Part shown: positions 211-20,001 of the stretch, piece by piece
Position numbering within the stretch: position 1 is the stretch's first letter
Layout of the letters: every line of letters begins with the position of its first letter
NCBI GenBank assembly: GCA_036745415.1
Contig: DAIOGF010000001.1
Location: 65,791 to 89,790 of the forward strand
Direction: 5' to 3'
Source of the DNA: Candidatus Saccharimonadota bacterium
GTDB taxonomy: Bacteria > Patescibacteriota > Saccharimonadia > Saccharimonadales > UBA4665
Length of the DNA stretch: 24,000 bases
Made by a program: the position numbers and the translations under genes
Notes under the pieces: model-generated
Databases searched by the model: none
What the model was told of the DNA's origin: nothing
Seen by the model: the letters and a program-made list of their open reading frames with translations, nothing else

Positions 211-2337
211 TTAGAGTTTTTCTAGCTTAGCATAGGTAAGATTCAACTTTTTCATTCCTTGATTCTTAAAGTAGACAGCTACATTGTCCCCTTCGATTTC
301 CATGATAGTTCCATCACCAAACATTTGGTGCCTAACAACATCACCAATAAATAGGTCAGGGACGTAACTGGGCTCATCAGAAGTATTCTCAAATGAAACA
401 GTTAGTGGAGTATAAGTATTCTCAGTCTTAAATTCTCCGTCAATCTCACTTAAGAATCTTGATGGAATATTGTGCGACACAGATCCATATATCATTCTAG
501 TATTAGCATTAGTTAAGAACAGTTCACGCTTTGCTCTAGTCATTCCAACATAACAAAGTCTGCGTTCTTCTTCCATTTCGCTTGCTTCGTATAGAGCTCT
601 ACTGTGTGGGAATAAGCCCTCTTCCATTCCGATCATGAATACTACATCAAACTCTAGACCCTTAGCAGCATGGAGCGTCATGAGGGTTACAGTATTGTTA
701 TCGAAATTGGCATTGTCTACGTCAGAAATTAAAGCTACCTCTTCTAGGAATACTCCGAGTCCAAGCTCTTGGTATTCTAAAGCTACAGAAATTAATTCTT
801 TCACGTTCTCTACTCTAGCTTCACCCTGCAAAGTGCCATCATCTAAGTATTTAAGATATTCGATTCTTCGAATAAGCGAGTCGATTAGCCCTGAGAGTGA
901 GCTAGTTTCAACAATTCTTCTTAGACTATTTAGACTGTCAGCAAGATCAACAACTTGGCTCTTAGCTTTTGGAGTCAGGCCAGGGCAGAGGTCTGCTGAA
1001 TTTAGTGCCTTCTCGATTGAGCCTAGCGAATTGGCATAAGATAAAACTGCAGCCACACTCTTAGGTCCGATTCCCCTTGCAGGAATATTGATTATTCGCT
1101 CTAAACTAACTCTATCTTCTGGCTGATAAATTAATCTTAAGTAAGCAATAATGTCTTTAATTTCTTTACGGTCATAGAATCTAACTCCACCTACTATGTG
1201 GTAAGGAATATTGTATCTAATGAATGCCTCTTCTATTGATCTGGACTGAGCGTTTGTTCTATATAGCACGGCAAAATCTTTATACTTATATATACCCTCA
1301 TCAATTCTAGTTGTCATGTGTCTAATAATGCTCTCGGCTTCAGATCGTTCATTACTTAACGTCAGAATCTGAACTGGCATCCCGTAGCCCATTTCAGTCC
1401 AAAGCTGCTTATCGCTTCTAGCTGTGTTCTTAGAAATTATCATATGAGCGGCATCTAGAATGTTTTTTGTTGACCTATAATTTTGTTCCAATTTAATTAC
1501 GGTTGTATTTGGATAATCTTTTTCAAAATTCAATATATTTCTAAAGTCAGCACCACGCCATGAATAAATTGACTGCCAGTCATCTCCAACCACTGCAATA
1601 TTATTATTCTTATTTGTTAAATACTTTACCAATTTATACTGGGCACTGTTCGTATCCTGATACTCGTCAATCATGATGTACTTAAATTTGTCTTGCCATT
1701 TTTTTCTAACTTCCTTATTTGAACTAAATAGTTCTACAGCCTTATTTATAAGGTCATCAAAATCTAGCGCAGATGCTTCTCTTAGACTTTTTTGGTAAAT
1801 AGGGTAGGTGGATGCTGCGACTTTTTGAACAGGACTTATGGCCCTGCTCATATATTCATCTGGGGAGAGCATTTCATTTTTTGCAGATGAAATTAAACTT
1901 AATATTGTTCGAGGAGCAAAAGCTTTGTCTTCAATTCCCTGTTCCTTCAACGCTCTTTTTACAACTGCCATTTGATCCTGATCATCAAAAATAACGAAGG
2001 TATTTGGAATAGAAATATATTCTCCGTCGAGCCTTAGAAGCTTCACACATATTCCATGGAATGTACCCATGAATGGCATAAAACTAAAGCTACCTGCATT
2101 ACCACCAATTAGCTTAGCTACTCTTTCACGCATCTCTTTGGCTGCCTTATTAGTAAAAGTTACGGCCAATATTTCATCGGACTGCGCAAGATTATTTGAA
2201 ATTAAATAAGCTATACGATGTGTTAATGTTTTTGTTTTACCGCTTCCGGCTCCTGCTTGTATTAGAAGTGGACCCTCAGTAGTTTCAACTGCCCTTCTCT
2301 GTTCTTTATTTAAACCCTCTAGCAAGTTATTAATCAT
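211..2337 (-). CDS. pcrA: ATP-dependent DNA helicase, PcrA/UvrD (SF1A) family
   Basis: 708-aa ORF with the SF1 motifs: AGAGSGKTKTLTHRIAYLI (Walker A), MIDEYQDTN (motif II), VGDDWQSIYSWRGA (motif III), TLHAAKGLEF and YVGMTRAK (V/VI). The C-terminal GDVVRHQMFGDGTI tail is typical of PcrA/UvrD. Confidence 0.95.
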   Translation of the reverse strand: MINNLLEGLNKEQRRAVETTEGPLLIQAGAGSGKTKTLTHRIAYLISNNLAQSDEILAVTFTNKAAKEMRERVAKLIGGNAGSFSFMPFMGTFHGICVKLLRLDGEYISIPNTFVIFDDQDQMAVVKRALKEQGIEDKAFAPRTILSLISSAKNEMLSPDEYMSRAISPVQKVAASTYPIYQKSLREASALDFDDLINKAVELFSSNKEVRKKWQDKFKYIMIDEYQDTNSAQYKLVKYLTNKNNNIAVVGDDWQSIYSWRGADFRNILNFEKDYPNTTVIKLEQNYRSTKNILDAAHMIISKNTARSDKQLWTEMGYGMPVQILTLSNERSEAESIIRHMTTRIDEGIYKYKDFAVLYRTNAQSRSIEEAFIRYNIPYHIVGGVRFYDRKEIKDIIAYLRLIYQPEDRVSLERIINIPARGIGPKSVAAVLSYANSLGSIEKALNSADLCPGLTPKAKSQVVDLADSLNSLRRIVETSSLSGLIDSLIRRIEYLKYLDDGTLQGEARVENVKELISVALEYQELGLGVFLEEVALISDVDNANFDNNTVTLMTLHAAKGLEFDVVFMIGMEEGLFPHSRALYEASEMEEERRLCYVGMTRAKRELFLTNANTRMIYGSVSHNIPSRFLSEIDGEFKTENTYTPLTVSFENTSDEPSYVPDLFIGDVVRHQMFGDGTIMEIEGDNVAVYFKNQGMKKLNLTYAKLEKL

Positions 2338-2502
2338 CTAAATATATTACCAAATGTTCGTAATTTAATTAAAAAATCATTAAGGAAATTAACAGATAAA
2401 ATGATGTGTTTTTTAATCGAAATTTAATGTTTTTGGAATTTAGATTTCTATTTCAGAGCCAATTAATGGTTATATGCAAGATATTAAAGGAGTTAATATT
2501 TT

Positions 2503-2796
2503 ATGGAACACATCCAAACCATAATTTATCTAGCAGATGCCCAAGCAAGCATTGGACAAATAGATAATTTTATTAAGAGCATAATACAGGCCCTAGCCGG
2601 AATAGCCGGACTAGTAGCAACCGGATATTTCGTAGTTGGCGGTTTTAGCTATATTACTAGTAGTGGAAATCCGCAGAAATTAGAGAAAGCAAAACGTACG
2701 ATTACATTTTCTGGAATTGGCTTAGCAATTACCATCGGAGCATTTGTAATTAGCGATATTGTAAGCTCATTAGCAACTAAGGCATTTGGATCATAG
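2503..2796 (+). CDS. Type IV secretion system pilin-like protein (TrbC/VirB2-like, of the kind common in CPR/Gram-positive-type T4SS loci)
   Basis: 97 aa with two hydrophobic helices flanking a conserved loop, VGGFSYITSSGNPQKLEKAKRTI. AAGGAG lies about 10 nt upstream of the ATG. It is the first gene of a translationally coupled operon that contains VirB4. Confidence 0.65.
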   Translation: MEHIQTIIYLADAQASIGQIDNFIKSIIQALAGIAGLVATGYFVVGGFSYITSSGNPQKLEKAKRTITFSGIGLAITIGAFVISDIVSSLATKAFGS

Positions 2797-2798
2797 CA

Positions 2799-4136
2799 AT
2801 GTTTTACTTTGGGTTAATAAATAAAGATGTTGCTACAGCATTAAGTCCATATCTTCATGCGCTTTATTTACTAGCAGCTACTATATCTACCCTCTCAATA
2901 TTAGTTGGCGGATATCTATATATAACAAGTAGTGGAAATATTAATAAGTTAGAAAAAGCTAAAAAAGTTATTAGAAATAGTTTAATAGGATTAGTCGTAG
3001 TTCTATCGGCTTCATTCCTAACAAATTTTTTAGATCAGAAATCTAATCAGTCTTTAAATTTACCAAATGGTGTTCCAAAACTTGAAGTTTTGTCTCCAAA
3101 GAAGAGTGATTCAGGACTCGTTGATCTAATCATTAAAGCTATAACGGGTGTGTTTTCAAATGTAATTACTTCAATGACTGAGCCCATCGTGAATGGTTTT
3201 AACTATTTCTTAAGAGGCACTCCACTGCCCTCTAAAAATTCTCAGGTATTTAATTTGTGGCTAAGCGTACTTGCAATAGCTAATGGTCTATTCATATTGG
3301 TCTTAATTATGATGGGAATGCATCTTATGAGCTTCTCTATTCTAGGCCTGAATGAATTATCTCTAAGTAAATTAATAGGAAGCTCAATATTTGGATTTAT
3401 TTTAATGAATTCATCCATATTCATAATAGATGCCATTATCATTCTATCTAATAGCCTTATAAGAATAATTGAAAACTCGTCAGCATTTTACGTGTTTAAT
3501 TCGATCAAAGCAATAATTAATGACCCTAGTATCTTCTCATTGGCGGGTTCGATTATCTTAATAATATTTCTTGTCATAGCTGTAATATTAATGGTCTTTT
3601 ATCTAATGAGAATTATAGGGATATATTTAGGAGCGATACTTTCTCCGCTAATTATTCTACTTTGCTTAGTTCCTGCTTTTAAAGATCTAATGTATGGACT
3701 TATGAAGAAATATTTCTTGAATATAAATATTATTTTCATTCATATCATAATTTTAGAACTTGCCGGTTCTCTGATTAACAACATAGATTCGAATGGTGGT
3801 GGACTTATGAAAGTATTCTTAGCTTTAGCCTCTTTAATAACTCTAATTAAATCTCCCGCTGTTGCTTCGCAATTATCTAATGTAGCTACAGCTCCTAGAA
3901 TGGCAAGACAGTTTGCTGAAAAAATGATAATTACTACTAGCATGCTTGGTGGGGCAACTGCAACTGCCGGCGCGACAGTAGGCGCATTTAAGCAGAGTGT
4001 ATTTACGCCAAAATATGAATCAGGGGGCTATATGAGCGGTGAAGATTACGCCATAAAAGAGAATGTTCATAAAACCGCGGAGAAAATTAGAAATGGAGAA
4101 GCAAACATTAATGATCTAAAAGGACTTAAAAAATGA
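2799..4136 (+). CDS. Polytopic T4SS membrane protein: N-terminal pilin-like module fused to a VirB6/TrbL-like multi-TM domain
   Basis: 445 aa. Residues ~20-75 repeat the pilin module of the upstream gene (VGGYLYITSSGNINKLEKAKKVI). At least 6 predicted TM helices follow (LWLSVLAIANGLFILVLIMMG, IFGFILMNSSIFIIDAIIIL, SIILIIFLVIAVILMVFYLM, and others), then a hydrophilic tail. It starts 3 nt after the pilin stop and overlaps the next gene by ATGA. The VirB6 assignment rests on topology and operon position, not on a recognised motif. Confidence 0.55.
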   Translation: MFYFGLINKDVATALSPYLHALYLLAATISTLSILVGGYLYITSSGNINKLEKAKKVIRNSLIGLVVVLSASFLTNFLDQKSNQSLNLPNGVPKLEVLSPKKSDSGLVDLIIKAITGVFSNVITSMTEPIVNGFNYFLRGTPLPSKNSQVFNLWLSVLAIANGLFILVLIMMGMHLMSFSILGLNELSLSKLIGSSIFGFILMNSSIFIIDAIIILSNSLIRIIENSSAFYVFNSIKAIINDPSIFSLAGSIILIIFLVIAVILMVFYLMRIIGIYLGAILSPLIILLCLVPAFKDLMYGLMKKYFLNINIIFIHIIILELAGSLINNIDSNGGGLMKVFLALASLITLIKSPAVASQLSNVATAPRMARQFAEKMIITTSMLGGATATAGATVGAFKQSVFTPKYESGGYMSGEDYAIKENVHKTAEKIRNGEANINDLKGLKK

Positions 4137-4594
4137 GAATAAGTATTGTTCCCGCAGAAATGACAAGTGTAAAAGATAAAATAATCGGCAATCTCGAGCT
4201 CAAACAAATATTACTCCTTGCCACACCTCTCATCTTTGCAATATTTACATACATAGCCATTCCGCCATTCAATAAAACTAATAGCCCTAAGATAATCTTG
4301 TTTATTGTTTTTAGCTTTATAAGCTCTATTTTGTCCATCAATATATCTGGAGAATTAGTTCTTGAAATTATTATTAATGGTTTTAAGTATTTAATAAGAC
4401 CAAAAATTCACTTAAGCACAATAAAAAATCTAGAAGATGAAATATTGGAAGATTTAAAAAACAATGAAATATCTATGGAAAATTCTAGACCACCGGAAAT
4501 TAAAGATCGAATTAAATTAGATTTACCAAAAGGTAACGTAGCTTTCTATTTTAATAGAAAAGGAGCACTGAATGTTAGATTCTATAAACAATAG
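4133..4594 (+). CDS. PrgI-family / VirB3-like small T4SS membrane protein
   Basis: 153 aa. The N-terminus, VPAEMTSVKDKIIGNLELKQILLLATPLIFAIF, matches the PrgI-family pattern (K-I/F-x-x-G-L-x-x-x-Q followed by two TM helices). It sits immediately upstream of VirB4, as VirB3 does in canonical systems. Confidence 0.6.
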   Translation: MRISIVPAEMTSVKDKIIGNLELKQILLLATPLIFAIFTYIAIPPFNKTNSPKIILFIVFSFISSILSINISGELVLEIIINGFKYLIRPKIHLSTIKNLEDEILEDLKNNEISMENSRPPEIKDRIKLDLPKGNVAFYFNRKGALNVRFYKQ

Positions 4595-5198
4595 GAAATC
4601 GTCTTCTTCAAAACAAATAGAAATAAAAAAGATAGAAGACGGAATAGTTCAAATCGGTAAAGATAAATATGTATCAATAATTAGAACTGGATCAATTAAT
4701 TTCGAATTAAAAAATGAGAAAGAACAGGATTCAGTAATAGATTCTTATGAAAATCTACTTAACGGGCTCAATTTCCCTGTACAAATATTAATTCGAACTA
4801 GGGAGCTAGAAATTAAAGAGTACCTTCAAAGCATTAATGAATTAAAGCAATACGAGAATGAAACAATCTACAAAAATCTTATAGAAAAATACTCATCATT
4901 CATTAGAAATTTAGTTAAGGATAAAAAAATTATATCTAGACATTTCTATATAGTATTTGGCATTGATTCAAAAGATAGAAATATGTCTAGCATAAAGCAA
5001 CAATTAGATATTAAGTTGGATTACTTAAAAAGAAATCTAAATAACGTAGGTATAGAAATAAAGAAACTAGATAGTTTAGAGCTTATAGATCTATTTCATA
5101 GCTTCTATTCCCCACATTCGAATAAATATCAGCCGATAAGCCATGAATCACTACTGGCGCTTAATAATGAATATATAAGGAGAGGAAATGAAATATAA
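4572..5198 (+). CDS. VirB4-like protein, N-terminal domain encoded as a separate cistron
   Basis: 208 aa. IEIKKIEDGIVQIGKDKYVSIIRTGSINFELKNEKEQDSVIDSYENLLNGLNFPVQILIRTREL ... SRHFYIVFG follows the N-terminal pattern of Gram-positive (CD1110/TcpF/PrgJ-type) VirB4 ATPases. It overlaps the PrgI-like gene by 23 nt and the ATPase cistron by 11 nt. Confidence 0.6.
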   Translation: MLDSINNRKSSSSKQIEIKKIEDGIVQIGKDKYVSIIRTGSINFELKNEKEQDSVIDSYENLLNGLNFPVQILIRTRELEIKEYLQSINELKQYENETIYKNLIEKYSSFIRNLVKDKKIISRHFYIVFGIDSKDRNMSSIKQQLDIKLDYLKRNLNNVGIEIKKLDSLELIDLFHSFYSPHSNKYQPISHESLLALNNEYIRRGNEI

Positions 5199-6861
5199 TA
5201 AATTCAATTTAGGAATAGAAAATCTTACTGATAAATTTTCATATACATCCCTTAAAGAAAATATTGATCACATTATTATAGATAATCAATTTGTGAGAAT
5301 TTTATACATATCAGGATATCCATACGTAGCAAGTAACGGCTGGATGGAAAATCTTATTAAATTTAATTCAGATAATGATTTATCTTTCTTTATAGAACAA
5401 ATACCTGCAAATTTAGCTTTGCCTAAATTAAATAGAAAAATTACTGAATTAGAGTCAACCAGAAGAGCTATGCTAAAAGACGGTAAATTAGTATCTTCAG
5501 ATATTAATGATCCGCTTAGTTCGGCTATGGAGCTTAAAGATAAAATAATTCGCGGTCAAGAAAAATTATTTCAGTTTAGTATCTATATTGCACTCCGAGA
5601 AAATTCTATTGAAGATATAAATAAATCTACGAATTTACTAGAGACCATATTAGCTTCTAAATTATTCAATACAAGAACTGCATACCTTCAGCAAATAGAT
5701 GCTATGCAATCTGTGCTTCCTAGATTAGAGGATAAATTAAAACAAAAAAGAAATCTTAACTCAACATCCTCAGCCTTAACCTTCCCCTTCATATCTTCTG
5801 AGGTTTTCCATAAGGATGGAACTCTTTATGGAATTAATAAGTCCAATGATTCATTGGTTATTATAGACAGATTCAGTCTTAATAATGCTAATTCAATAGT
5901 GTTTGCTCAGAGTGGAAGTGGAAAAAGCTACTTATCTAAAATTGAGATATTAAGACAATTAATGATAGGAACACAGGTTATAGTTATTGACCCAGAAGAT
6001 GAATATAGGGATCTATGTAATCACGTTAAAGGACAGTATATAGATATTGATATAGATTCAGATAACCACATTAACCCTTTCGATATTTCCAATAAGAACA
6101 AAAAACAAAATTTGTCAGAATTTATTCAGGAACTAACAGAAATATTAGATTTACTTACTGAAGGCTTAGATGTATCAGAAAAAGCTGTAATAGATAAAGC
6201 TTTAACTTATCTTTATTCAAAAGCTAGATCCAATACTGATATCTCGGATTTATATAGATATTTAAAGAAAAATAAATTCAATTTACTTGCTAATAAATTA
6301 GAAAAATACGTTAAGGGAAGTTTGAAATCTTTATTTGTGAATAAAACCAATATTGATTTAGATAATAGATTAGTTGTATTTGGCATAAAGAACTTACCTA
6401 GTGGCATCAAGCAACTAATGATGTTAATAATCTCTAATTACATATCTAACAAAGTAAAAAATGACCCAGTCAAAAGGTTATTGGTAATAGATGAAGGTTG
6501 GATGTTGCTTGAGAATGATATCACAGCTCAATTTATTGCAGGACTAGTTAGGCGAGCAAGGAAATACTACTTGGGGGTATCAATAATTTCCCAACAAGCC
6601 AATGACTTTTTAAATAACAAATATGGTTCAGCTATAGCTTCTCAAAGTTCAATGAGAATATTATTAAAACAAGACACAACAAGTATAGATAGAGTTAGCC
6701 TTGATTTCTCTTTGAGTAACTATGAGAAATCTTTTCTTTTAAACTGCGGTAAAGGTGACGCACTATTCATTCTAGACAGAACTCATGTTGCGGTAGAAGT
6801 AATTGCCTCCAATGATGAGCACCCAATAATAACAACTAACCCTAAGGAAAAACATGAATAA
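5188..6861 (+). CDS. virB4: VirB4-family T4SS ATPase (central and C-terminal ATPase portion)
   Basis: 557 aa. FVRILYISGYPYVASNGWMENLI is the VirB4 mid-domain signature. Walker A is FAQSGSGKSY (GSGKS codons 5914-5928). Walker B is RLLVIDEGW (6481-6501). The arginine-containing RRARKYYLGVSIISQ motif is also present. AGGAGAGG lies directly upstream of ATG 5188. Confidence 0.88.
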   Translation: MKYNKFNLGIENLTDKFSYTSLKENIDHIIIDNQFVRILYISGYPYVASNGWMENLIKFNSDNDLSFFIEQIPANLALPKLNRKITELESTRRAMLKDGKLVSSDINDPLSSAMELKDKIIRGQEKLFQFSIYIALRENSIEDINKSTNLLETILASKLFNTRTAYLQQIDAMQSVLPRLEDKLKQKRNLNSTSSALTFPFISSEVFHKDGTLYGINKSNDSLVIIDRFSLNNANSIVFAQSGSGKSYLSKIEILRQLMIGTQVIVIDPEDEYRDLCNHVKGQYIDIDIDSDNHINPFDISNKNKKQNLSEFIQELTEILDLLTEGLDVSEKAVIDKALTYLYSKARSNTDISDLYRYLKKNKFNLLANKLEKYVKGSLKSLFVNKTNIDLDNRLVVFGIKNLPSGIKQLMMLIISNYISNKVKNDPVKRLLVIDEGWMLLENDITAQFIAGLVRRARKYYLGVSIISQQANDFLNNKYGSAIASQSSMRILLKQDTTSIDRVSLDFSLSNYEKSFLLNCGKGDALFILDRTHVAVEVIASNDEHPIITTNPKEKHE

Positions 6862-7354
6862 AACCATCTACATAATCTGTGGAGTAATTTTATTTATTCT
6901 CATCATTTCTCCGGTCATAGCTTTAGCCAATTTGACAGATTTAATTTCAATTAATAATCCAAATACCAATATCTTTAAAGATGTATATGTATATATGGGC
7001 CCAAATGTAGACGGGGATAATTACGTTTTCGGAAACTGCACATGGTGGGTGGCTTATTTAAAAATTAAAGAAGGTGATCCGATTCCAAATAACTGGGGAA
7101 ATGCAGCTACTTGGAGTTCGCGCTCTGTATTCGACGGATACCGTGTAGATCATTCACCTTCAGTAGGTTCTATAATGCAAGATTCATATGACGCAGGTGG
7201 ACTAGGACACGTTGCTATGGTTACATCCGTTGATATTTATGGAAATTGGACCATTAGCGAAATGAATTATATTGGATTAGATATTGTTGACAGTAGGAGC
7301 TTAAATTATAGCCAAAGTAACAAGTACAATTTTATTCATAAAGGAGGACTTTGA
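6854..7354 (+). CDS. Membrane-anchored CHAP-domain peptidoglycan hydrolase (VirB1-equivalent of Gram-positive-type T4SS)
   Basis: 166 aa. N-terminal anchor IYIICGVILFILIISPVIALA. The CHAP catalytic Cys sits in FGNCTWWVAY (Cys codon 7037-7039) and the catalytic His in GLGHVAMV (7208-7210). It overlaps virB4 by 8 nt. Confidence 0.8.
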   Translation: MNKTIYIICGVILFILIISPVIALANLTDLISINNPNTNIFKDVYVYMGPNVDGDNYVFGNCTWWVAYLKIKEGDPIPNNWGNAATWSSRSVFDGYRVDHSPSVGSIMQDSYDAGGLGHVAMVTSVDIYGNWTISEMNYIGLDIVDSRSLNYSQSNKYNFIHKGGL

Positions 7355-7433: not shown

Positions 7434-7868
7434 ATGAAAAAAGAAGTAAATACTAAAGAAGATTTCAACACTACACTTATGAATAAAATTAATTTACTCA
7501 CAAGTGGTTTAGACTATCTAAAAGTAAGTATGGGTGAACTAAGAACTGAGCTTAAAAATGATATGGGTGAACTAAGAACTGAGCTTAAAAATGATATGGG
7601 TGAACTAAGAGGGAACATGAATGGAATTAAGGATGAAATTAATCAGATTAAATTGTCCATTGTTGATGTACGCAAACATGTAACTAGCATTGATGAAAAA
7701 TTGGCCATAAATAATTCAGAGATAGTAGCAGTAAGAAAAATTGCCTACGAAAATACTGAAGCAATTAAAACTCTAGATTATAAAGTAGACCATCTGTACG
7801 AAGACTTGAAGAAACAAATAGAAGACAATCGAGAAAATGATCAAGGATTAATACTAAAACACGCTTGA
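7434..7868 (+). CDS. Small soluble coiled-coil protein with tandem 11-aa repeats (MGELRTELKND), function unknown
   Basis: 144 aa with no TM helix and heptad-like charged/hydrophobic periodicity throughout. GGAG lies 4 nt upstream of the ATG. Its 3' end overlaps the convergent tpiA 3' end by 28 nt (7841-7868). Confidence 0.6.
   Translation: MKKEVNTKEDFNTTLMNKINLLTSGLDYLKVSMGELRTELKNDMGELRTELKNDMGELRGNMNGIKDEINQIKLSIVDVRKHVTSIDEKLAINNSEIVAVRKIAYENTEAIKTLDYKVDHLYEDLKKQIEDNRENDQGLILKHA
7530..7610 (+). repeat. In-frame 33-bp tandem repeat: two perfect copies plus a 15-nt partial third copy
   Basis: ATGGGTGAACTAAGAACTGAGCTTAAAAATGAT occurs at 7530-7562 and identically at 7563-7595. ATGGGTGAACTAAGA at 7596-7610 then diverges. 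Confidence 0.95.
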
Positions 7869-14417: not shown

Positions 14418-15414
14418 AAACTACTTGAATTTTCTTTGGCTCGTTTTCTTTCTTAGCTGGCTTAGTCACTTTACTGAAGCCATCTATATGCTTAACTTTT
14501 CGAGGCTTTTCTATGACGCTAGGTTGGATGTTCGCAGTGCTGGCTTTAACTGAGCTGTGGTGAATTTGCGACGGCTTATATACTCCAAACAATTTAGGAT
14601 TAACGTAATTAGAATATTTAATTTCTTCAACATCATCGAAATTTATTTCGTAATCTTCACGGATATTCATATTTATATTTCCAAATGAATCATAAGTAAC
14701 GTATCTTCTAACAGTCTTTTTGTTTTTGATAAATAACATTGCTATTGATATGTAATAAAGAACAATGATAGGAATAGCTACTATGAACTGTGAAATAGGA
14801 TCGTAGGTAAATGGAAGAATTACTGCAATTATTAAAGCGCCAACTACAACCTGCTTTTGATATTTTAATAACTTAGTAGGATTTATAGGCTTAATCTGGT
14901 CAATAAAGTCTATAAGTAGTGGCATTTGGAAGAAAACAGCAAAGCTACAAATAATATTTATAACGTAATTAATATAATCATTAGCAGATATTAGGGGTTT
15001 TATTGAGCTATTAGAATATCCCGAGAAAAAGTGCAGTGAAGTAGGTATGATCACATAAAAACCAAAAGCTGCGCCCACTAAGGCCAAAAGAACAGAGTAG
15101 AATGTTATTTTTAATAATCTAGATGTATTAACTCTCTGATAAACTGCAGGCTCAATAAATCTAATAATGTTATATACAAGAACTGGGAGAGCTATGAAAA
15201 CACCCATAATTCCAGCCACTTTCATAACAATATTAAAGCCACCACCTGGAGTATTGTAGTAAAGAGGCTGGCCTAGTGGACTGTCTAAGAATTTAATGAT
15301 TGCAACTCTAAAGAAATAGCCTAAAGTACCACTAACTGCAACAGCTAGAAATACCCAAAACGCCCTCTTCTTTAATTCGTTAAGATGGTCATGAAATGTC
15401 TGCGACCCGTCCAC
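14410..15414 (-). CDS. tatC: Twin-arginine translocase subunit TatC, with a ~100-aa hydrophilic C-terminal extension
   Basis: 334 aa with a GTG start preceded by GAGAGGGTAGG. The HLNELKKRAFWVFLAVAVSG opening and six TM helices fit the TatC layout. Residues from ~235 onward (KNKKTVRRYVTYDSF...KKENEPKKIQVVYG) are extra relative to typical ~250-aa TatC proteins. Confidence 0.85.
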   Translation of the reverse strand: MDGSQTFHDHLNELKKRAFWVFLAVAVSGTLGYFFRVAIIKFLDSPLGQPLYYNTPGGGFNIVMKVAGIMGVFIALPVLVYNIIRFIEPAVYQRVNTSRLLKITFYSVLLALVGAAFGFYVIIPTSLHFFSGYSNSSIKPLISANDYINYVINIICSFAVFFQMPLLIDFIDQIKPINPTKLLKYQKQVVVGALIIAVILPFTYDPISQFIVAIPIIVLYYISIAMLFIKNKKTVRRYVTYDSFGNINMNIREDYEINFDDVEEIKYSNYVNPKLFGVYKPSQIHHSSVKASTANIQPSVIEKPRKVKHIDGFSKVTKPAKKENEPKKIQVVYG

Positions 15415-15438
15415 TGCCTACCCTCTCATTTATTTTTT

Positions 15439-15606
15439 CTATTGATTGTCTGTTGAAGACTTTTCAGTTGAATCTTCGTTAAAACCTTTTCGAACTTCCT
15501 TTACAGAACGTCCAAGGCTTTTAGCTAATTCAGGAATTCTCTTGTGTCCAAATAGTAATAACAGTATTAGTACTATGATGGAAACTTCTTCTATTTTTCC
15601 AAACAT
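15439..15606 (-). CDS. tatA: Twin-arginine translocase subunit TatA/E (55 aa; not in the supplied ORF track)
   Basis: My translation of the minus strand from ATG 15606..15604 to TAG 15441..15439 is MFGKIEEVSIIVLILLLLFGHKRIPELAKSLGRSVKEVRKGFNEDSTEKSSTDNQ. This shows a TM helix, the hinge FG, and the amphipathic helix (P-E-L-x-x-x-L-G) typical of TatA. A GAGGGAGAG RBS lies just upstream. It sits 24 nt upstream of tatC. Confidence 0.8.
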   Translation of the reverse strand: MFGKIEEVSIIVLILLLLFGHKRIPELAKSLGRSVKEVRKGFNEDSTEKSSTDNQ

Positions 15607-15747
15607 TTTATCTCTCCCTCTCTTATTTAGTTAACCTCTAACAAAGTAAACTTTAATATTATTTTATAACTTACCACCTATAATGTAAATGCTTAAAGAC
15701 TAGTCTTCGTTGTAATATTGAAAATATAAATAGTAAAATAAACGAAT

Positions 15748-16362
15748 ATGGATATAAGTAAACTAATTCAATCCAATAAGATAATTAGCGATCAGATAGA
15801 CAAGAGATCACTAAAAGTTGTATTGGAGAATTTATCTAAGACTATAGAAAGAGATGTTCCAGGAGATATAGTCGAATTAGGTTGCTATAAAGGTACGACA
15901 AGTCTTTTTATAAGAAGAGTATTAGATTATTACAAGTCAGATAAGAAATTCTATGTTTATGACTCATTTGAAGGACTCCCCTGGAAATCTTCCGATGATC
16001 AATCTATTATTGGTGAGGTATTCAAAGAGGGTGAACTTAAAGCCAATAAAAAAGAACTCATAAATAACTTCAAAAAAGCTGGGTTTACACTACCCATAAT
16101 TCACAAAGGTTGGTTTAAAGATATTAAGCATCAAGACATGCCAAAAAACATTAGTTTTGCATTCTTGGATGGAGACTTCTTTGAATCAATCTTTGTCAGC
16201 CTAGAGCTGGTTTATCATTTTCTTTCTGATGGAGGAATTATAGTTGTAGATGATTACGACAACCCTAAGCTTCCAGGTGTAAAGAAAGCAGTAGATACAT
16301 TTTTTATAGATCTAGATGTAAATATTCAGAAAATTGCCAATGAAGCAGTAATATATTTTTAA
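15748..16362 (+). CDS. Class I SAM-dependent methyltransferase, TylF/MycF (macrocin O-methyltransferase) family
   Basis: 204 aa. GDIVELGCYKGTTS (SAM-binding loop) and FAFLDGDFFESIFVSLELVYHFLSDGGIIVVDDY (metal/SAM motif DGDxYES ... GG ... DDY) are the TylF-family hallmarks. Confidence 0.8.
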   Translation: MDISKLIQSNKIISDQIDKRSLKVVLENLSKTIERDVPGDIVELGCYKGTTSLFIRRVLDYYKSDKKFYVYDSFEGLPWKSSDDQSIIGEVFKEGELKANKKELINNFKKAGFTLPIIHKGWFKDIKHQDMPKNISFAFLDGDFFESIFVSLELVYHFLSDGGIIVVDDYDNPKLPGVKKAVDTFFIDLDVNIQKIANEAVIYF

Positions 16363-16399
16363 GAAATCTTCTTATTGCTACTTGATTATTATTTTAATC

Positions 16400-16528
16400 C
16401 TAGATGTCTGATTTAGCTTTATTCCTTAGAGCCATAGTTGAGCTTATAAGTACAAAACTAGTTACAGCGCCGATTATTAAAGTAGCTTCAGAGAAAATGT
16501 TTTCGAATTTACCTGAACCAGTGTTTGG
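16400..16528 (-). other. C-terminal sorting signal: PNTG (16517-16528), then GxF, a hydrophobic helix and a basic tail
   Basis: CCA AAC ACT GGT (minus strand) encodes PNTG. It is followed by SGKFENIFSEATLIIGAVTSFVLISSTMALRNKAKSDI and the stop codon. Confidence 0.7.
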
Positions 16529-18040
16529 CGTAGCTGGTACGGTTGGCAAGCCAAGGAAATAACTCGTAGTAAAAGCACTAGGAACTCCACCTCCATCACC
16601 AATTGTTATGCTAGAGGTTGGATCGCTACTATTAAAAATAGGAGTTCCACTTCCAATTCCAACTATGTAAATATTTCCTAATTTATCTACTGATGAAGAA
16701 TTGTGATATGCGGTGGTACTAGAAGCGCCTGTATCTACAGTTCTAACGAATTTAAATCCACCATTTAAATCTACTCCAATGAAAAATGCACTAGTATTGG
16801 CTGATGTTAAGTCATTGGCATTTGAAGCTGGATTAAAATGAATAGTACCACTCCAAGAACCAACTGCATACAGACCGTTGTTGTAGTAACTTAATGAATT
16901 AATGTATACAGTACTATTACCATCACTATTTTTAAATGTCTTAGTCCATGTATAATTTCCATCATTAGTTAGTTTGGTTATAAATGCATTATATTTATTA
17001 TTATTACCAGTGGTTGAACTATCATCAACCACAACAGAACCTCCACGACCATCAAAAGTTATAGAACCAGAATACTGACCACCTAAGTAGATGTTGTTAT
17101 TATCGTCTAAAACTAAAGATTGTGGGTATACGTAAGAATTATCTGAAGAAGCTAGATATTTCGTCCAGATAACATTTCCGTTAGAATCGTACTTACTTAC
17201 AAAACCCTCACCTGAATTAACCGCAGGGCTTGGCAATTCATGATAACCACAAAGATAAATATTTCCATTTTTATCTAATTTAATAGAAGAGCTGTAGGTA
17301 TTTGAATCGGAAGGATCTAAATTGGTAATTTTTGTCCATTTATAATTACCGGAATCATCATACTTAGTTATATAACTTTGAAAACTAGAAAATGTTTGAG
17401 TGTTAGAGCCATTTAAGCCATCAAAAGTTACAGTTCCAGTAACACTACCCGAGATATATAAATTATTTGAAGCGTCTGTCGTTAGTGCATTAACAATATA
17501 CCCATTTGAACCACTTGGAATAATATAATCCCTAATAAAATTACCATTGTTATCGTAAGCGGCAACAAATCCGAAGCTATCAGGATTGAAATATGACTGG
17601 TCGCCAATTCCAACAGTGCCTGAACCTACACCGCCTATATAAACGGTTCCGTTAGGAGCTACGGTTAGCCCGAAACAAAAAGCTCCTGAGTTTTGATCTA
17701 AAGGCACAACTGCCTTAGTCCAAACATAAGCTCCACTACTGGAGTACTTTGTAACGGCACAGCCTGGATTCATACCATTTAATGGAGTAGATATAGTGTC
17801 ATGATTACCAATAGGATCAAAAGTCACTGTTCCACCAAAAACACTAAGAGTATAAGTATTATTATTGGAGTCTGTAGCAGAAAACATTCCCTCACTAGCC
17901 CCACCGTCTGATAGACCATTAGTTTTAGTGAACCTATACTGAGGCAATTCACTGCTATCTGCTTTCACCATACCACTTGAAGCAGTTGTTAATATTAACG
18001 TATACAATAATGCGCTAAATATCCTAAAAAATCTTTTCAC
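16400..18040 (-). CDS. Secreted surface protein with SBBP-like beta-propeller repeats and a C-terminal TPNTG sorting signal (paralog 1)
   Basis: The maximal ORF reaches 18058 (GTG). I prefer GTG 18040 because AGGGGAG lies 5 nt upstream of it, which gives MKRFFRIFSALLYTLILTTASSGMVKA|DS as the signal peptide. Repeated units of the type G-N-(I/L)-Y-(I/L/V)-x-G ... (F/Y)(I/V)(T/S)K(Y/L)(D/T)xxGxxxWTK recur. The protein is rich in N/S/G/T/Y. The C-terminus is ATPNTGSGKF + TM + RNKAKSDI. Confidence 0.75.
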   Translation of the reverse strand: MKRFFRIFSALLYTLILTTASSGMVKADSSELPQYRFTKTNGLSDGGASEGMFSATDSNNNTYTLSVFGGTVTFDPIGNHDTISTPLNGMNPGCAVTKYSSSGAYVWTKAVVPLDQNSGAFCFGLTVAPNGTVYIGGVGSGTVGIGDQSYFNPDSFGFVAAYDNNGNFIRDYIIPSGSNGYIVNALTTDASNNLYISGSVTGTVTFDGLNGSNTQTFSSFQSYITKYDDSGNYKWTKITNLDPSDSNTYSSSIKLDKNGNIYLCGYHELPSPAVNSGEGFVSKYDSNGNVIWTKYLASSDNSYVYPQSLVLDDNNNIYLGGQYSGSITFDGRGGSVVVDDSSTTGNNNKYNAFITKLTNDGNYTWTKTFKNSDGNSTVYINSLSYYNNGLYAVGSWSGTIHFNPASNANDLTSANTSAFFIGVDLNGGFKFVRTVDTGASSTTAYHNSSSVDKLGNIYIVGIGSGTPIFNSSDPTSSITIGDGGGVPSAFTTSYFLGLPTVPATPNTGSGKFENIFSEATLIIGAVTSFVLISSTMALRNKAKSDI

Positions 18041-18076
18041 TTTATCTCCCCTTAACACTTAATTCTTATGAATTGT

Positions 18077-18100
18077 ATTAATATAATTTAAGCATTAGCG
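18077..18100 (-). promoter_or_regulatory. Upstream element shared by the two SBBP paralogs; likely contains the -10 region
   Basis: Plus-strand ATTAATATAATTTAAGCATTAGCG at 18077-18100 compares with TTTAATATAATTTAATCATTGGCT at 19825-19848. Read in the gene direction, both give AATG(C/A)TTAAATTATATTAA about 35-55 nt upstream of the start codon. Confidence 0.3.
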
Positions 18101-18154
18101 TAATGAATTTGCAAATACATAATTAGTTATTAAAGTCAGACTATCTACTTTTAT

Positions 18155-18280
18155 CTAAGCTTTTCTGAATTTATTCCTGGCGACTAGCAATCCAGTAGTG
18201 ACAGTGCATATAAGCGACAATACTAATAGAGCTTGCTCATTTGTTAGGAATTTACTGAAAACACCCGCACCTGTATTAGG
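18155..18280 (-). other. C-terminal sorting signal: PNTG (18269-18280), then GxF, a hydrophobic helix and a basic tail
   Basis: CCT AAT ACA GGT (minus strand) encodes PNTG. It is followed by AGVFSKFLTNEQALLVLSLICTVTTGLLVARNKFRKA and the stop codon. Confidence 0.7.
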
Positions 18281-19795
18281 CGTCTTAGGTACAGCAGTAG
18301 GATATGCAGCTAATTGATAGCTAGTAGTAAGAGTACTTGTAACTCCTTGACCATCGCCAATTTGCTGTCGATCAATTCCTCCCGGTCCGTCAAACACAGG
18401 AGTACCACTTGTGATACCAACTATATAAATATTGCCAATTCCGTCAACCGAAGCCTGAACATACAGCGCAGCGGTACGTCCGTCAAAAGATATATCCGTA
18501 ACTTTAGTAAATTTGTACGAACCATCTTGTCCATAACCGCTAAAATAAGCATTATTGTTACCATTTGGAGCAGTTAAGTTAGTCGAAGCATCATCCTGAT
18601 TGAATTGAACGGTACCATCAAATGCTCCTACAGCATAAATCTCATCATTATAAACTAACAAGGAATTTATATATGAGTGATTTCCTTCGCCAGTAGCTAT
18701 GTGTATTCTAGTCCATTGGTAACTACCATCTGAAGCGTACTTGCTTATAAAACCAGAATCCGAGTTGGTGACTGCCGTATGATTACCACCCTCCCCATCA
18801 AATGTAGTAGATCCATTAAAGAACCCACCTACGTAAATATTATCAGTACTATCAAGTGCAATAGAGTTACATCCAACTTGGTTGCTGCCAGTAGTAATAA
18901 CAGATTTTACCCAAATCGAATTTCCTTGTGAGTCTAACTTTTCAAGAAAAGCATATCTACTATTATCACTATTATCATATTGACCACAAGTGTATATGTT
19001 TCCCGATTTATCTACAGTTATAAAACTGTTAAGTGAGAAGCCATATGGCTCAACATCTGCTATCTTTACCCACTGATATACGCCCTGGTCGTTATACTTC
19101 GCAGTGTACGCAACTTGACTGCTATAAGTATTGTAATTTGTTCCATCAAAAGAAACATTGCCCTGTATATTACCTCCGATATAAAGATTATTGTTCGAGT
19201 CCACTGACAATGTATTTAACTCATTCCAAGAACTGGAATCCCCTCTAGGAAGTATTAGGGTCTTCAGATAACTACCGTCAGTTTTGTATTCATTAACATA
19301 GGAGTAACCATATGAACCTCCGTATGTGTCAGAATATGAGTGAGTTCCACCTGGGCCATCATAAATTACAGAGCCCGCAGAATAACCTCCAACGTACACA
19401 ACGCCATTACTACCTACAGCTACGGAATCACAAATATCAAACCCATTAGTTGGATCTAGGTAATCGATAAATTTAGTCCACTGATAAACTCCTGCGCTAT
19501 TGTATTTTGTTAATGCGCAAGTAACAGTCATTCCTTGTCCACCCGTTGGAGTGTAAGAACTAGTATTATCTCCTGGATTAAACTTCACAGTTCCATTCCA
19601 TATGCCTGCAGTATATGTATTATTACTTGAATCAGTAGCTGAAGCAGTACCATTAGACCACCCATTTGTTACGTCATTTATTTTTGTGAACCTATAACTT
19701 GGATAGTTGGCTGCAGCCTGAGCAAGACCACTCATTCCAGTAAATAACCCTATTATGGATATAAAGGTTCCTGCTAATTTAATTTTTATTCTCAT
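18155..19795 (-). CDS. Secreted surface protein with SBBP-like beta-propeller repeats and a C-terminal TPNTG sorting signal (paralog 2)
   Basis: 546 aa. The ATG is preceded by GAGGGG. The signal peptide is MRIKIKLAGTFISIIGLFTGMSGLAQA|A. It is collinear with paralog 1: YRFTK(T/I)N, DS(N/S)NNTYT, Y(V/Q)WTK, NNLYI(S/G)G, DK(N/S)GNIY(L/T)CG, (N/D)NIY(L/V)GG, GNIYIVGI(G/T)SGTP(I/V)F, IGDG(G/Q)GV. The C-terminus is KTPNTGAGVF + TM + RNKFRKA. Confidence 0.75.
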   Translation of the reverse strand: MRIKIKLAGTFISIIGLFTGMSGLAQAAANYPSYRFTKINDVTNGWSNGTASATDSSNNTYTAGIWNGTVKFNPGDNTSSYTPTGGQGMTVTCALTKYNSAGVYQWTKFIDYLDPTNGFDICDSVAVGSNGVVYVGGYSAGSVIYDGPGGTHSYSDTYGGSYGYSYVNEYKTDGSYLKTLILPRGDSSSWNELNTLSVDSNNNLYIGGNIQGNVSFDGTNYNTYSSQVAYTAKYNDQGVYQWVKIADVEPYGFSLNSFITVDKSGNIYTCGQYDNSDNSRYAFLEKLDSQGNSIWVKSVITTGSNQVGCNSIALDSTDNIYVGGFFNGSTTFDGEGGNHTAVTNSDSGFISKYASDGSYQWTRIHIATGEGNHSYINSLLVYNDEIYAVGAFDGTVQFNQDDASTNLTAPNGNNNAYFSGYGQDGSYKFTKVTDISFDGRTAALYVQASVDGIGNIYIVGITSGTPVFDGPGGIDRQQIGDGQGVTSTLTTSYQLAAYPTAVPKTPNTGAGVFSKFLTNEQALLVLSLICTVTTGLLVARNKFRKA

Positions 19796-19824
19796 ATCAC
19801 CCCTCTTCTTTTGCTTAAAAATAA

Positions 19825-19848
19825 TTTAATATAATTTAATCATTGGCT
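19825..19848 (-). promoter_or_regulatory. Second copy of the upstream element shared by the SBBP paralogs
   Basis: See the entry for 18077-18100. About 19 of 24 positions are identical by eye, in the same orientation, at a roughly similar distance from the start codon (about 30-55 nt). Confidence 0.3.
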
Positions 19849-19869
19849 TCATACAATTATAATAAATTT

Positions 19870-20001
19870 CTATCTTGCAATTTGCCTAATCTTATACCTA
19901 TAAGCTGTCGTAAGTGCTGCGGAAACTGAAAGTGCAGACAAAATAATTAGAGATATCTCATTCGAGATCGAACCATCAAACACTCCGTATCCGGTATTTG
20001 G
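19870..20001 (-). other. C-terminal sorting signal: PNTG (19990-20001), then GxF, a hydrophobic helix and a basic tail
   Basis: CCA AAT ACC GGA (minus strand) encodes PNTG. It is followed by YGVFDGSISNEISLIILSALSVSAALTTAYRYKIRQIAR and the stop codon. Confidence 0.7.

Follow-up and report, generated by a model that had tools for sequence, protein, structure and literature searches.

A compact six-gene type IV secretion system cassette with a pilin::VirB6 fusion in a Saccharimonadales chromosome

The chromosome of an ultra-small Candidatus Saccharimonadota bacterium of the order Saccharimonadales (GenBank assembly GCA_036745415.1) carries, within the 24,000-nucleotide stretch that we call the window (contig DAIOGF010000001.1, positions 65,791 to 89,790), a six-gene, 4.85-kb cassette related to type IV secretion systems (T4SSs). 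Judged from its sequence, the cassette encodes a complete inner-membrane T4SS core of VirB3-like, TrsD, VirB4 and VirB6-like proteins, together with a pilin and a wall hydrolase (Table 1). We think it probable that this is a functional, minimal T4SS of the monoderm type that serves host-contact transfer of protein or other cargo, or forms an adhesive pilus, and does not serve self-conjugation, and that it descends from an ancient mobile-element module that is now under selection. Because no coupling protein or relaxase is encoded nearby, self-conjugation by this genome's system is most likely not its purpose, and a pilus or translocon working without a coupling protein is most likely what the cassette builds. 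Chromosomal, relaxase-less, pilin-bearing T4SSs are already a published kind of system in Patescibacteria, and, as a preliminary description of this DNA had stated, the literature leaves their function unresolved (Wang et al. 2023, PMC10633639; Quinonero-Coronel et al. 2025, PMC12102498). What is new here is a compact variant, not singled out in published surveys of Patescibacteria T4SSs, that combines a pilin::VirB6 fusion, a leaderless pilin, a complement of six genes, a VirB4 lineage of its own, relocation as a unit and, occasionally, a type IV coupling protein (T4CP).

Table 1. Features of the cassette and its borders, numbered from the first nucleotide of the window
Feature	Position	Strand	Basis
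Intergenic region between divergent pcrA and the cassette	2338-2502		Sequence read directly
ORF1, VirB2-like T4SS pilin, 97 aa	2503-2796	+	PF18895 T4SS_pilin, 3e-11
ORF2, pilin::VirB6/TrbL fusion, 445 aa	2799-4136	+	N-terminal T4SS_pilin, 3e-7; polytopic membrane domain
ORF3, PrgI/VirB3-like membrane protein, 153 aa	4133-4594	+	PF12666 PrgI, 1e-4
ORF4, TrsD (VirB4 N-domain as a separate soluble protein), 208 aa	4572-5198	+	CD1110-family VirB4, 2e-15
ORF5, VirB4 ATPase, middle and C-terminal domains, 557 aa	5188-6861	+	NF045971, 5e-93
ORF6, membrane-anchored CHAP peptidoglycan hydrolase, 166 aa	6854-7354	+	PF05257 CHAP, 3e-15
Coiled-coil ORF between the CHAP gene and tpiA, 144 aa	7434-7868	+	Generic coiled-coil matches only

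The six open reading frames (ORFs) are as tightly packed as had been described, with a 2-nt gap between the first two and overlaps of 4, 23, 11 and 8 nt between those that follow. Each starts with ATG behind its own Shine-Dalgarno-like motif (aaaggag at 2486-2492 for ORF1, within the intergenic region shared with pcrA), and the six genes are translationally coupled. Profile searches with the pilin, PrgI, VirB4 and CHAP models all matched, PrgI below its threshold, in agreement with the family assignments made earlier for the six proteins. The VirB4 ATPase encoded by ORF5 would be the motor of the system: it matches the CD1110-family VirB4 model over positions 199-733, P-loop_TraG (7e-26), AAA_10 (6e-18) and the solved VirB4 C-terminal domain 4AG5 (2e-30), and both its Walker A (AQSGSGKS) and Walker B (LLVIDE) motifs are intact. 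The N-terminal domain of VirB4 lies in ORF4, which aligns with positions 8-172 of the CD1110-family model, positions 98-284 of the Mycoplasma VirB3-VirB4 fusion model NF045975 (4e-12) and TrsD (1e-5), carries a precomputed TraC-like annotation (PF26593) and gave no match in a PDB sequence search. The earlier label of VirB4-N was right as to the domain, and TrsD is the name by which the literature knows the protein. We rejected a frameshift or pseudogene as the source of the split, since both halves have their own ribosome-binding motif and start codon and a separate TrsD-like ORF adjoins VirB4 in 73 of 80 related loci. ORF3 has two predicted transmembrane (TM) helices (residues 21-39 and 54-72) and a cytoplasmic tail of about 80 residues, its start overlapping the ORF2 stop (ATGA); it also matches positions 3-103 of NF045975, and its orthologs in five related cassettes have precomputed PrgI matches. 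ORF6, with an N-terminal TM helix (7-25), an intact catalytic dyad of Cys62 (GNCTWW) and His119 (GHVAMV) and matches to the solved CHAP domains 2LRJ (2e-20) and 2K3A (2e-18), would be the functional counterpart of VirB1/TrsG. Among seven related cassettes the hydrolase slot is filled by a CHAP protein in four and by an M23 peptidase in two, and in the seventh (L005 in our numbering of loci) the gene after VirB4 encodes a T4CP-like ATPase. A known defence or phage system was rejected as an identity for the locus, as the window proteins gave only generic P-loop and coiled-coil matches to such systems.

The two pilin-bearing proteins give the cassette its most distinctive feature. ORF1 scores above the Pfam threshold for T4SS_pilin and also matches TrbC/VirB2 (1e-4) and the pilin-like conjugal transfer protein model NF045849 (1e-11); it is a two-helix hairpin (predicted TM helices 27-45 and 72-90) joined by a positively charged loop, YITSSGNPQKLEKAKR. 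A hairpin clearly paralogous to ORF1 opens ORF2 (about residues 11-78) and is followed by a disordered linker (82-99) and a VirB6/TrbL-like polytopic helical domain with about six further TM helices. The exact ORF2 protein has a precomputed TrbL_3 annotation, and our direct Pfam scan returned only TrbL_4, at an E-value of 0.24. Homologs of ORF2 fall into 87 clusters, nearly all of which combine PF18895 with TrbL_3, TrbL or TrbL_4, suggesting that the pilin::VirB6 architecture defines a populated family. An AlphaFold2 model of ORF2 (predicted local distance difference test score 77.6) found R388 TrwI/VirB6 chains as its top five PDB matches (probability 0.89-0.99, E 0.03-0.1, TM-score 0.35-0.46). 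In the R388 TrwI/VirB6-TrwJ/VirB5 stalk (PDB 7O3V, 8RT9, 8RTD) the VirB6 pentamer is the pilin assembly platform; R388, however, encodes VirB5 separately and lacks a pilin fusion on its VirB6, whereas the window has no VirB5.

A working model follows from established T4SS biology. VirB4 hexamers, held at the membrane by TrsD and the PrgI/VirB3 protein, would dock on the VirB6 platform, and ATP hydrolysis by VirB4 would extract pilin from the membrane and polymerize it into a short pilus or conduit, while the CHAP enzyme would open peptidoglycan locally, in the cell's own wall or in that of the host. More speculatively, the hairpins fused to VirB6 may nucleate the pilus by supplying a first layer for the free pilin, replacing the missing VirB5. 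Coupling-protein-less T4SSs are able to secrete proteins or to import DNA, as the Bordetella Ptl, Brucella VirB and Helicobacter ComB systems show. Like the window cassette, these three are driven by VirB4 and have neither a VirD4-type coupling protein nor a relaxase; unlike it, they belong to diderms and have VirB7/9/10 outer-membrane cores, and some of their substrates reach the periplasm via Sec. No sequence relationship between them and the window proteins closer than general VirB4 homology was found.

These precedents raise the question of whether the cassette imports DNA, as Helicobacter ComB and archaeal Ced do, supplying a nucleotide-auxotrophic epibiont with DNA from its host. Known uptake T4SSs do consist of VirB2, VirB3, VirB4 and VirB6 without a T4CP or relaxase, and Patescibacteria are described in the literature as having no de novo nucleotide synthesis. 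The resemblance to ComB and Ced systems, however, is limited to the common lack of a T4CP and a relaxase: the window VirB4 does not specifically resemble CedB or ComB families, neither of which occurs among the NCBIfam matches of the window proteins. Moreover, natural transformation of the Saccharimonadia bacterium Southlakia epibionticum needs ComEC and type IV pili, and loss of competence leaves its viability unaffected (2025 review); direct evidence for import is lacking for any Patescibacteria T4SS. We consider DNA import a very doubtful function for the cassette.

The closest experimentally studied system is that of S. epibionticum, in which transposon insertion sequencing (Tn-seq) showed the T4SS cluster SEML1_0006-0019, which has pilins and no recognizable coupling protein or relaxase, to be essential for epibiotic growth (Wang et al. 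2023, PMC10633639). This cluster in strain ML1 and the window cassette share host phylum and class, a chromosomal location, the absence of an adjacent relaxase or T4CP, VirB2-like pilins, a separate TrsD and a gene order that runs from pilin(s) through VirB6, PrgI, TrsD and VirB4 to a cell-wall hydrolase. VirB2-like pilins are unusual for monoderms. The two differ greatly in size, the S. epibionticum cluster having 14 genes in about 19 kb, with six pilins and two VirB6-like proteins of about 1,000 aa where the window has one free pilin and one pilin::VirB6 fusion, a PrgI of 300 aa as against 153 aa, an NTF2/VirB8-like gene for which the window cassette has no equivalent, and downstream proteins of 643 aa (lysozyme) and 1,113 aa in place of the 166-aa CHAP protein. 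The S. epibionticum cluster, unlike the window cassette, lies beside dnaA; neither dnaA nor dnaN was found across the window and 10 kb of sequence on each side, ksgA being present in the left flank, and one of the compact relatives described below is beside dnaA.

A survey of 3,035 Patescibacteria genomes found VirB4 in 2,417 of them, with 2,474 VirB4 proteins in total or about one per genome, in a clade nested within MPF_FATA, along with VirB2-like pilins and 2,272 TrsD homologs that mostly adjoin virB4; relaxases were rare (109 in 103 genomes), and the chromosomal context was often close to the origin (Quinonero-Coronel et al. 2025, PMC12102498). With one VirB4 per genome as the norm, the window cassette might be a shrunken ortholog of the canonical, essential S. 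epibionticum-type (Se-type) T4SS and the sole T4SS of its genome. Its gene order, which follows SEML1_0006-0019, would fit this explanation, as would the recurrence of a ksgA/pcrA neighbourhood near T4SSs of other classes. To place the window VirB4, we took 80 relatives from species-representative genomes and supplemented them with five compact cassettes found via ORF2 homologs, six outgroups from Bacillota and two Se-type loci; neighbour-joining trees were bootstrapped in six configurations that combined three distance corrections with two column filters. The 80 relatives divide into canonical Patescibacteria (which, with the two later-added Se-type loci, number 56 sequences in the final tree), Chloroflexota (24 loci) and a compact group in which L001 and L005 join the window. 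Bootstrap support was 99-100% for the compact clade, 94-100% for the canonical clade and 99-100% for the Chloroflexota clade; canonical and Chloroflexota sequences grouped together in 47-96% of replicates, and compact and canonical ones in 0-1%. The window VirB4 is 58% identical to those of its compact relatives, as against 34% to the Se-type. In these neighbour-joining trees the compact VirB4 lineage thus appears separate from that of the canonical, experimentally studied Patescibacteria T4SS. The canonical loci have dnaA/dnaN as neighbours in 28 of 56 cases, ksgA in 17 and pcrA in 10, and Replic_Relax in none.

Synteny in L098, one of eight compact cassette loci that we examined (the window, L001, L005, L095, L097, L098, L099 and L100), argues in the same direction. 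In the stretch examined (L098, 1-21224) the compact cassette lies between dnaA and rnpA-yidC-jag, and on the other side, beyond recF-dnaN-dnaA, are homologs of the Se-type tail genes, encoding a protein of about 1,094 aa, a Phage_lysozyme2 protein and a protein of about 479 aa. Because a Se-type VirB4 stands directly upstream of such tail-gene homologs in all four loci in which we found them (L027, L102, L109 and L115), the L098 genome very probably carries both a compact and a Se-type T4SS, flanking its replication origin. Taken with the tree, this makes it unlikely that the window cassette is a reduced Se-type system.

The cassette does not occupy a fixed place in related genomes. In L094, whose PcrA is 70% identical to that of the window, the site is empty: pyk-pgk-tpiA abuts pcrA-G5-ksgA, and the 80-bp spacer between tpiA and pcrA goes with no trace of any cassette protein. 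In L095 and L100 the six genes lie on the other side of pyk-pgk-tpiA, upstream of and co-directional with pyk-pgk-tpiA-pcrA. The empty site, this alternative position and the one beside dnaA in L098 indicate that the six genes relocate as a unit among Saccharimonadales genomes. Elsewhere the cassette lies between a restriction-modification system and an OLD/UvrD pair (L099), has different neighbours and an M23 peptidase in place of CHAP (L001), belongs to an island that also contains reverse transcriptase, Mrr-like nuclease and helix-turn-helix genes, the next gene encoding a T4CP-like ATPase of 868 aa (L097), or stands between a large serine recombinase upstream and a T4CP-like ATPase downstream (L005). 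The adjacent T4CP-like ATPase in two of the eight loci and the serine recombinase in one of these point to a mobile-element ancestry of the cassette. Identity between the two T4CP-like proteins is 42%. The VirB4 proteins of L097 and L098 are 80.6% identical, yet these two loci differ in the presence of a T4CP. The proposal that the window locus is a domesticated chromosomal apparatus therefore holds in that it is chromosomal and has no mobility genes nearby, and needs qualifying in that the cassette is absent from L094, sits at other sites in relatives and has a T4CP-like ATPase beside it in two of eight cases.

In the window itself and in the 10 kb beyond either end (about 44 kb in all), no T4CP, relaxase or recombinase domain was found outside the cassette, no direct (att-like) repeats bound the cassette, and the window contains no tRNA. 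The hallmarks of an integrative and conjugative element (ICE), namely a recombinase, att repeats, a tRNA target, a relaxase and a coupling protein, are accordingly missing from the window and its 10-kb flanks. This bears out the absence of a coupling protein, relaxase, VirB8/TcpC-like protein, integrase, tRNA and direct repeats reported for the window in the preliminary description, and no T4CP, relaxase, integrase or att-like repeat that would mark an ordinary ICE turned up within 10 kb outside it.

A conjugation machine could still work with a coupling protein and relaxase encoded elsewhere and acting in trans. Besides the T4CP-like ATPase directly after the cassette in L005 and L097, one can cite for this the related Chloroflexota systems, whose loci also encode a Replic_Relax protein and a primase alongside a T4CP-like ATPase, and the survey's T4CP homologs, which occur in 2,918 Patescibacteria genomes and for the most part at a distance from virB4 (Quinonero-Coronel et al. 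2025, PMC12102498). Relaxases, on the other hand, are as rare in the phylum as noted above and occur at none of the eight compact loci, the 44 kb around the window cassette contain neither partner, and in S. epibionticum the distant T4CP homolog is non-essential whereas the T4SS genes are essential (PMC12102498). We regard conjugation in trans as quite unlikely.

If the cassette was once part of a mobile element, it might also be a decaying, non-functional ICE remnant that has lost its coupling protein, recombinase and relaxase, as could be argued from the T4CP and serine recombinase of its relatives, the empty site in L094, the pilin without a leader and the lack of a VirB8-like gene. Its state of preservation speaks strongly against this. 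All six ORFs are intact with their catalytic motifs present, the six-gene unit has been kept across eight lineages at 40-60% amino-acid identity, and all 10 population contigs examined have the cassette undisrupted, differing by no more than 3-4 substitutions (identity at least 99.96%). The composition is also fully ameliorated to the host. The GC content of the cassette dips to 0.27-0.29, a dip that arises in codon positions 1 and 2; at third positions (GC3) the cassette, at 0.246, is close to the rest of the window (0.267) and to the left-flank genes (0.241), and in L095, L098 and L100 cassette GC tracks that of the host across 39-47%. We therefore rejected the dip as a sign of foreign origin. 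Between the window and L095/L100, VirB4 is 58% identical and the adjacent Pyk and Pgk are 55-60% identical, which indicates long residence in the host, as far as sequence comparison can tell, and not recent transfer. The GC3 match, a VirB4 divergence like that of Pyk/Pgk and the intact, near-identical population copies together point to an old, selectively maintained module that is occasionally relocated or lost, and a decaying remnant is highly improbable. The VirB4 and PcrA sequences are both indexed in more than 50 collection blocks.

Several observations weigh against a functional secretion or pilus system of the kind that we favour. ORF1 has no signal peptide, while all seven homologs compared have a classical leader ending in A-x-A, and a longer leader is precluded because an in-frame stop lies at 2494-2496; export of the pilin could be impaired. 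The PrgI match of ORF3 falls short of the Pfam threshold, the match of the ORF2 model to the VirB6 fold is weak, and the pilus-nucleating role given to the fusion is speculation. No cassette ORF matched VirB8, PrgL or TcpC or has the right architecture for one, and a highly divergent VirB8-like protein may be encoded elsewhere. The same may be true of a T4CP, a relaxase or a second T4SS, the more so as the published survey reports distant T4CP homologs in most Patescibacteria genomes. Essentiality was shown by Tn-seq for the Se-type system only, and the branching order of the compact, canonical and Chloroflexota clades is unsettled in a tree built by neighbour joining alone. Since the published VirB4 tree did not include Chloroflexota, the compact clade may also fall inside the Patescibacteria clade as defined there.

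Outside Patescibacteria, the core and gene order of the cassette are almost identical to those of the pGO1/pSK41-type trs operon of Staphylococcus plasmids (MPF_FATA, pGO1 subclass), in which a CagC/VirB2-like protein, TrsC/PrgI, TrsD, VirB4 (DUF87), a membrane TrsF/TrbL protein and the CHAP hydrolase TrsG are encoded. Plasmid loci of Bacillus, Cytobacillus and Lactiplantibacillus are similar, with trsD in the same position in pMI and an L. plantarum plasmid. These trs-type loci differ from the window in being on plasmids, having a relaxase and a T4CP, being proven or typed as conjugative, sharing only 23-26% VirB4 identity with it and having no pilin::VirB6 fusion. Of the features of the pGO1/trs-like class, the window has VirB4, a PrgI/VirB3-like protein, TrsD upstream of VirB4, a VirB6/TrbL-like protein and CHAP; it has no coupling protein (in the window and 10 kb either side) and no VirB8-like protein (among the cassette ORFs). 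The features of Patescibacteria T4SSs, that is, a chromosomal location, no associated relaxase, and a VirB2-like pilin and TrsD near virB4, are all present.

The Chloroflexota loci (Dehalococcoidia and Anaerolineae), whose VirB4 proteins are 33-38% identical to that of the window, share with it the split TrsD-VirB4, a VirB2-like pilin and PrgI. In contrast to the window, all 24 have a DnaG-type primase and an ATPase of about 890 aa, 18 of 24 have Replic_Relax, and their hydrolases are NlpC/P60 and SLT proteins; because of the primase, the ATPase and the usual Replic_Relax protein, they look like conjugative elements. The ATPase, which gave no match in a PDB sequence search, is homologous to the T4CP-like proteins beside the compact cassettes L005 and L097, at about 25% identity. 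These loci include L012-L017, L024, L031, L034, L038 and L040-L042, and one 3.67-Mb chromosome has two copies.

Putting these comparisons together, we tentatively suggest, as a possibility somewhat short of an even chance, that Saccharimonadales may have two distinct T4SSs: an origin-side Se-type system, and a compact cassette that came from T4CP-bearing integrative elements related to the Chloroflexota conjugative elements, hops as a unit and coexists with the former in some genomes. The cassette would then be the smallest T4SS with the potential to form a pilus, its fusion protein nucleating the pilus without VirB5.

The window locus leaves the general picture of the Patescibacteria T4SS unchanged. 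A 2025 review ranks this system as perhaps the most exciting newcomer among T4SSs; S. epibionticum needs it for epibiotic growth, and it has pilins in a monoderm, with cargo and mechanism still unresolved in the literature. It does show, if our tree is right, that the T4SSs of Saccharimonadales are not all one lineage, and surveys based on VirB4 only may merge an essential core system with an accessory cassette. That conjugative-looking relatives in Chloroflexota already join a split VirB4 to VirB2-like pilins bears on the origin of the Patescibacteria T4SS and its pilins, and the six-gene version would be a far easier target for structural modelling and reconstitution than the 14-gene reference system.

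The cassette was confirmed to lie between pcrA and tpiA-pgk-pyk. Contigs from many samples encode these same window proteins, the longest of them measuring 667,538 bp. Nearest named homologs of PcrA, at 66-70% identity, are all from Candidatus Saccharimonadales. As ICEBs1 needs PcrA, we considered pcrA as a functional partner of the cassette and rejected this in favour of conserved synteny, since pcrA-ksgA occurs near T4SSs in other classes and the L094 pcrA abuts tpiA without a cassette. Indeed, in distant Patescibacteria classes (L022, L046, L067 and other canonical loci) there is a co-directional run from pcrA and ksgA through PrgI-TrsD-VirB4 to dnaA-dnaN, so the linkage of pcrA/ksgA with T4SSs appears to be an old synteny; the published survey mentions KsgA near the T4SS, not PcrA (PMC12102498). 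Four PcrA homologs (P0125, P0126, P0132 and P0136), 87-88% identical where measured, are about 950-1,070 aa long and contain Hint/intein-splicing domains, and pcrA in these close relatives therefore carries an intein; the 708-aa PcrA of the window has none. The intergenic region upstream of the cassette gave no convincing match to a sigma-70 promoter, the promoter and terminator scan being uninformative, with fewer promoter-like sites than in shuffled sequence, and the window had no match to an Rfam element or non-coding RNA.

The earlier inventory of six ORFs stands, with the addition of a coiled-coil ORF before tpiA that it had omitted and whose membership in the secretion system is uncertain. 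This ORF shares 28 nt with the 3' end of tpiA and sits within the inserted segment; neither the empty site nor any related cassette has it. It contains a 33-nt tandem repeat in 2.5 copies (7529-7610), the unit encoding MGELRTELKND, and the protein is 144 or 133 aa long depending on the sample, a difference of exactly one repeat unit; outside the repeat, identity between samples is at least 99.96% over the 5.5-kb region.

The remaining window genes are those of an ordinary chromosome: a lipid/glycan gene set, TatC, a methyltransferase, three beta-propeller surface proteins and a major facilitator superfamily transporter. Over 10 kb, the left flank of the window encodes a G5/DUF348 protein, KsgA, an aminoacyl-tRNA synthetase, TatD, an aminotransferase class V protein, MnmA and AlaRS, and the right flank, over the same length, a histidine kinase, response regulators, MurD, MurL and FolD. 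The surface proteins (16400-22299, minus strand), two SBBP beta-propeller proteins and an 809-aa NHL-repeat protein, share a C-terminal motif, [TS]PNTG[SAY]G, after which come some 10 residues and then a hydrophobic helix with a basic tail. Such an ending resembles a variant sortase (LPXTG-type) cell-wall sorting signal, and the relative L094 has a sortase gene near pcrA.

Defence or addiction genes are often found beside compact cassettes. L099 has a HaeIII-type restriction-modification pair (1453-3340) and a Gabija-like pair of OLD-TOPRIM and UvrD-like genes (14855-17639), and in L095 (5654-6293) and L098 (14564-15317) a toxin-antitoxin pair of ribbon-helix-helix and PIN proteins directly follows CHAP. 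Finally, a Bacillota megaplasmid typed as non-mobilizable, the 898-kb replicon of Pontibacillus sp. ALD_SL1 (L091, 4462-14015), has T4SS-like genes between chemotaxis and flagellar genes, encoding a pilin-like protein, a 779-aa protein, a 274-aa ORF, a VirB4 that is 34% identical to that of the window and a 1,050-aa M23 peptidase; this VirB4 branches near the base of the compact, canonical Patescibacteria and Chloroflexota clades and not with classical plasmid VirB4 proteins.

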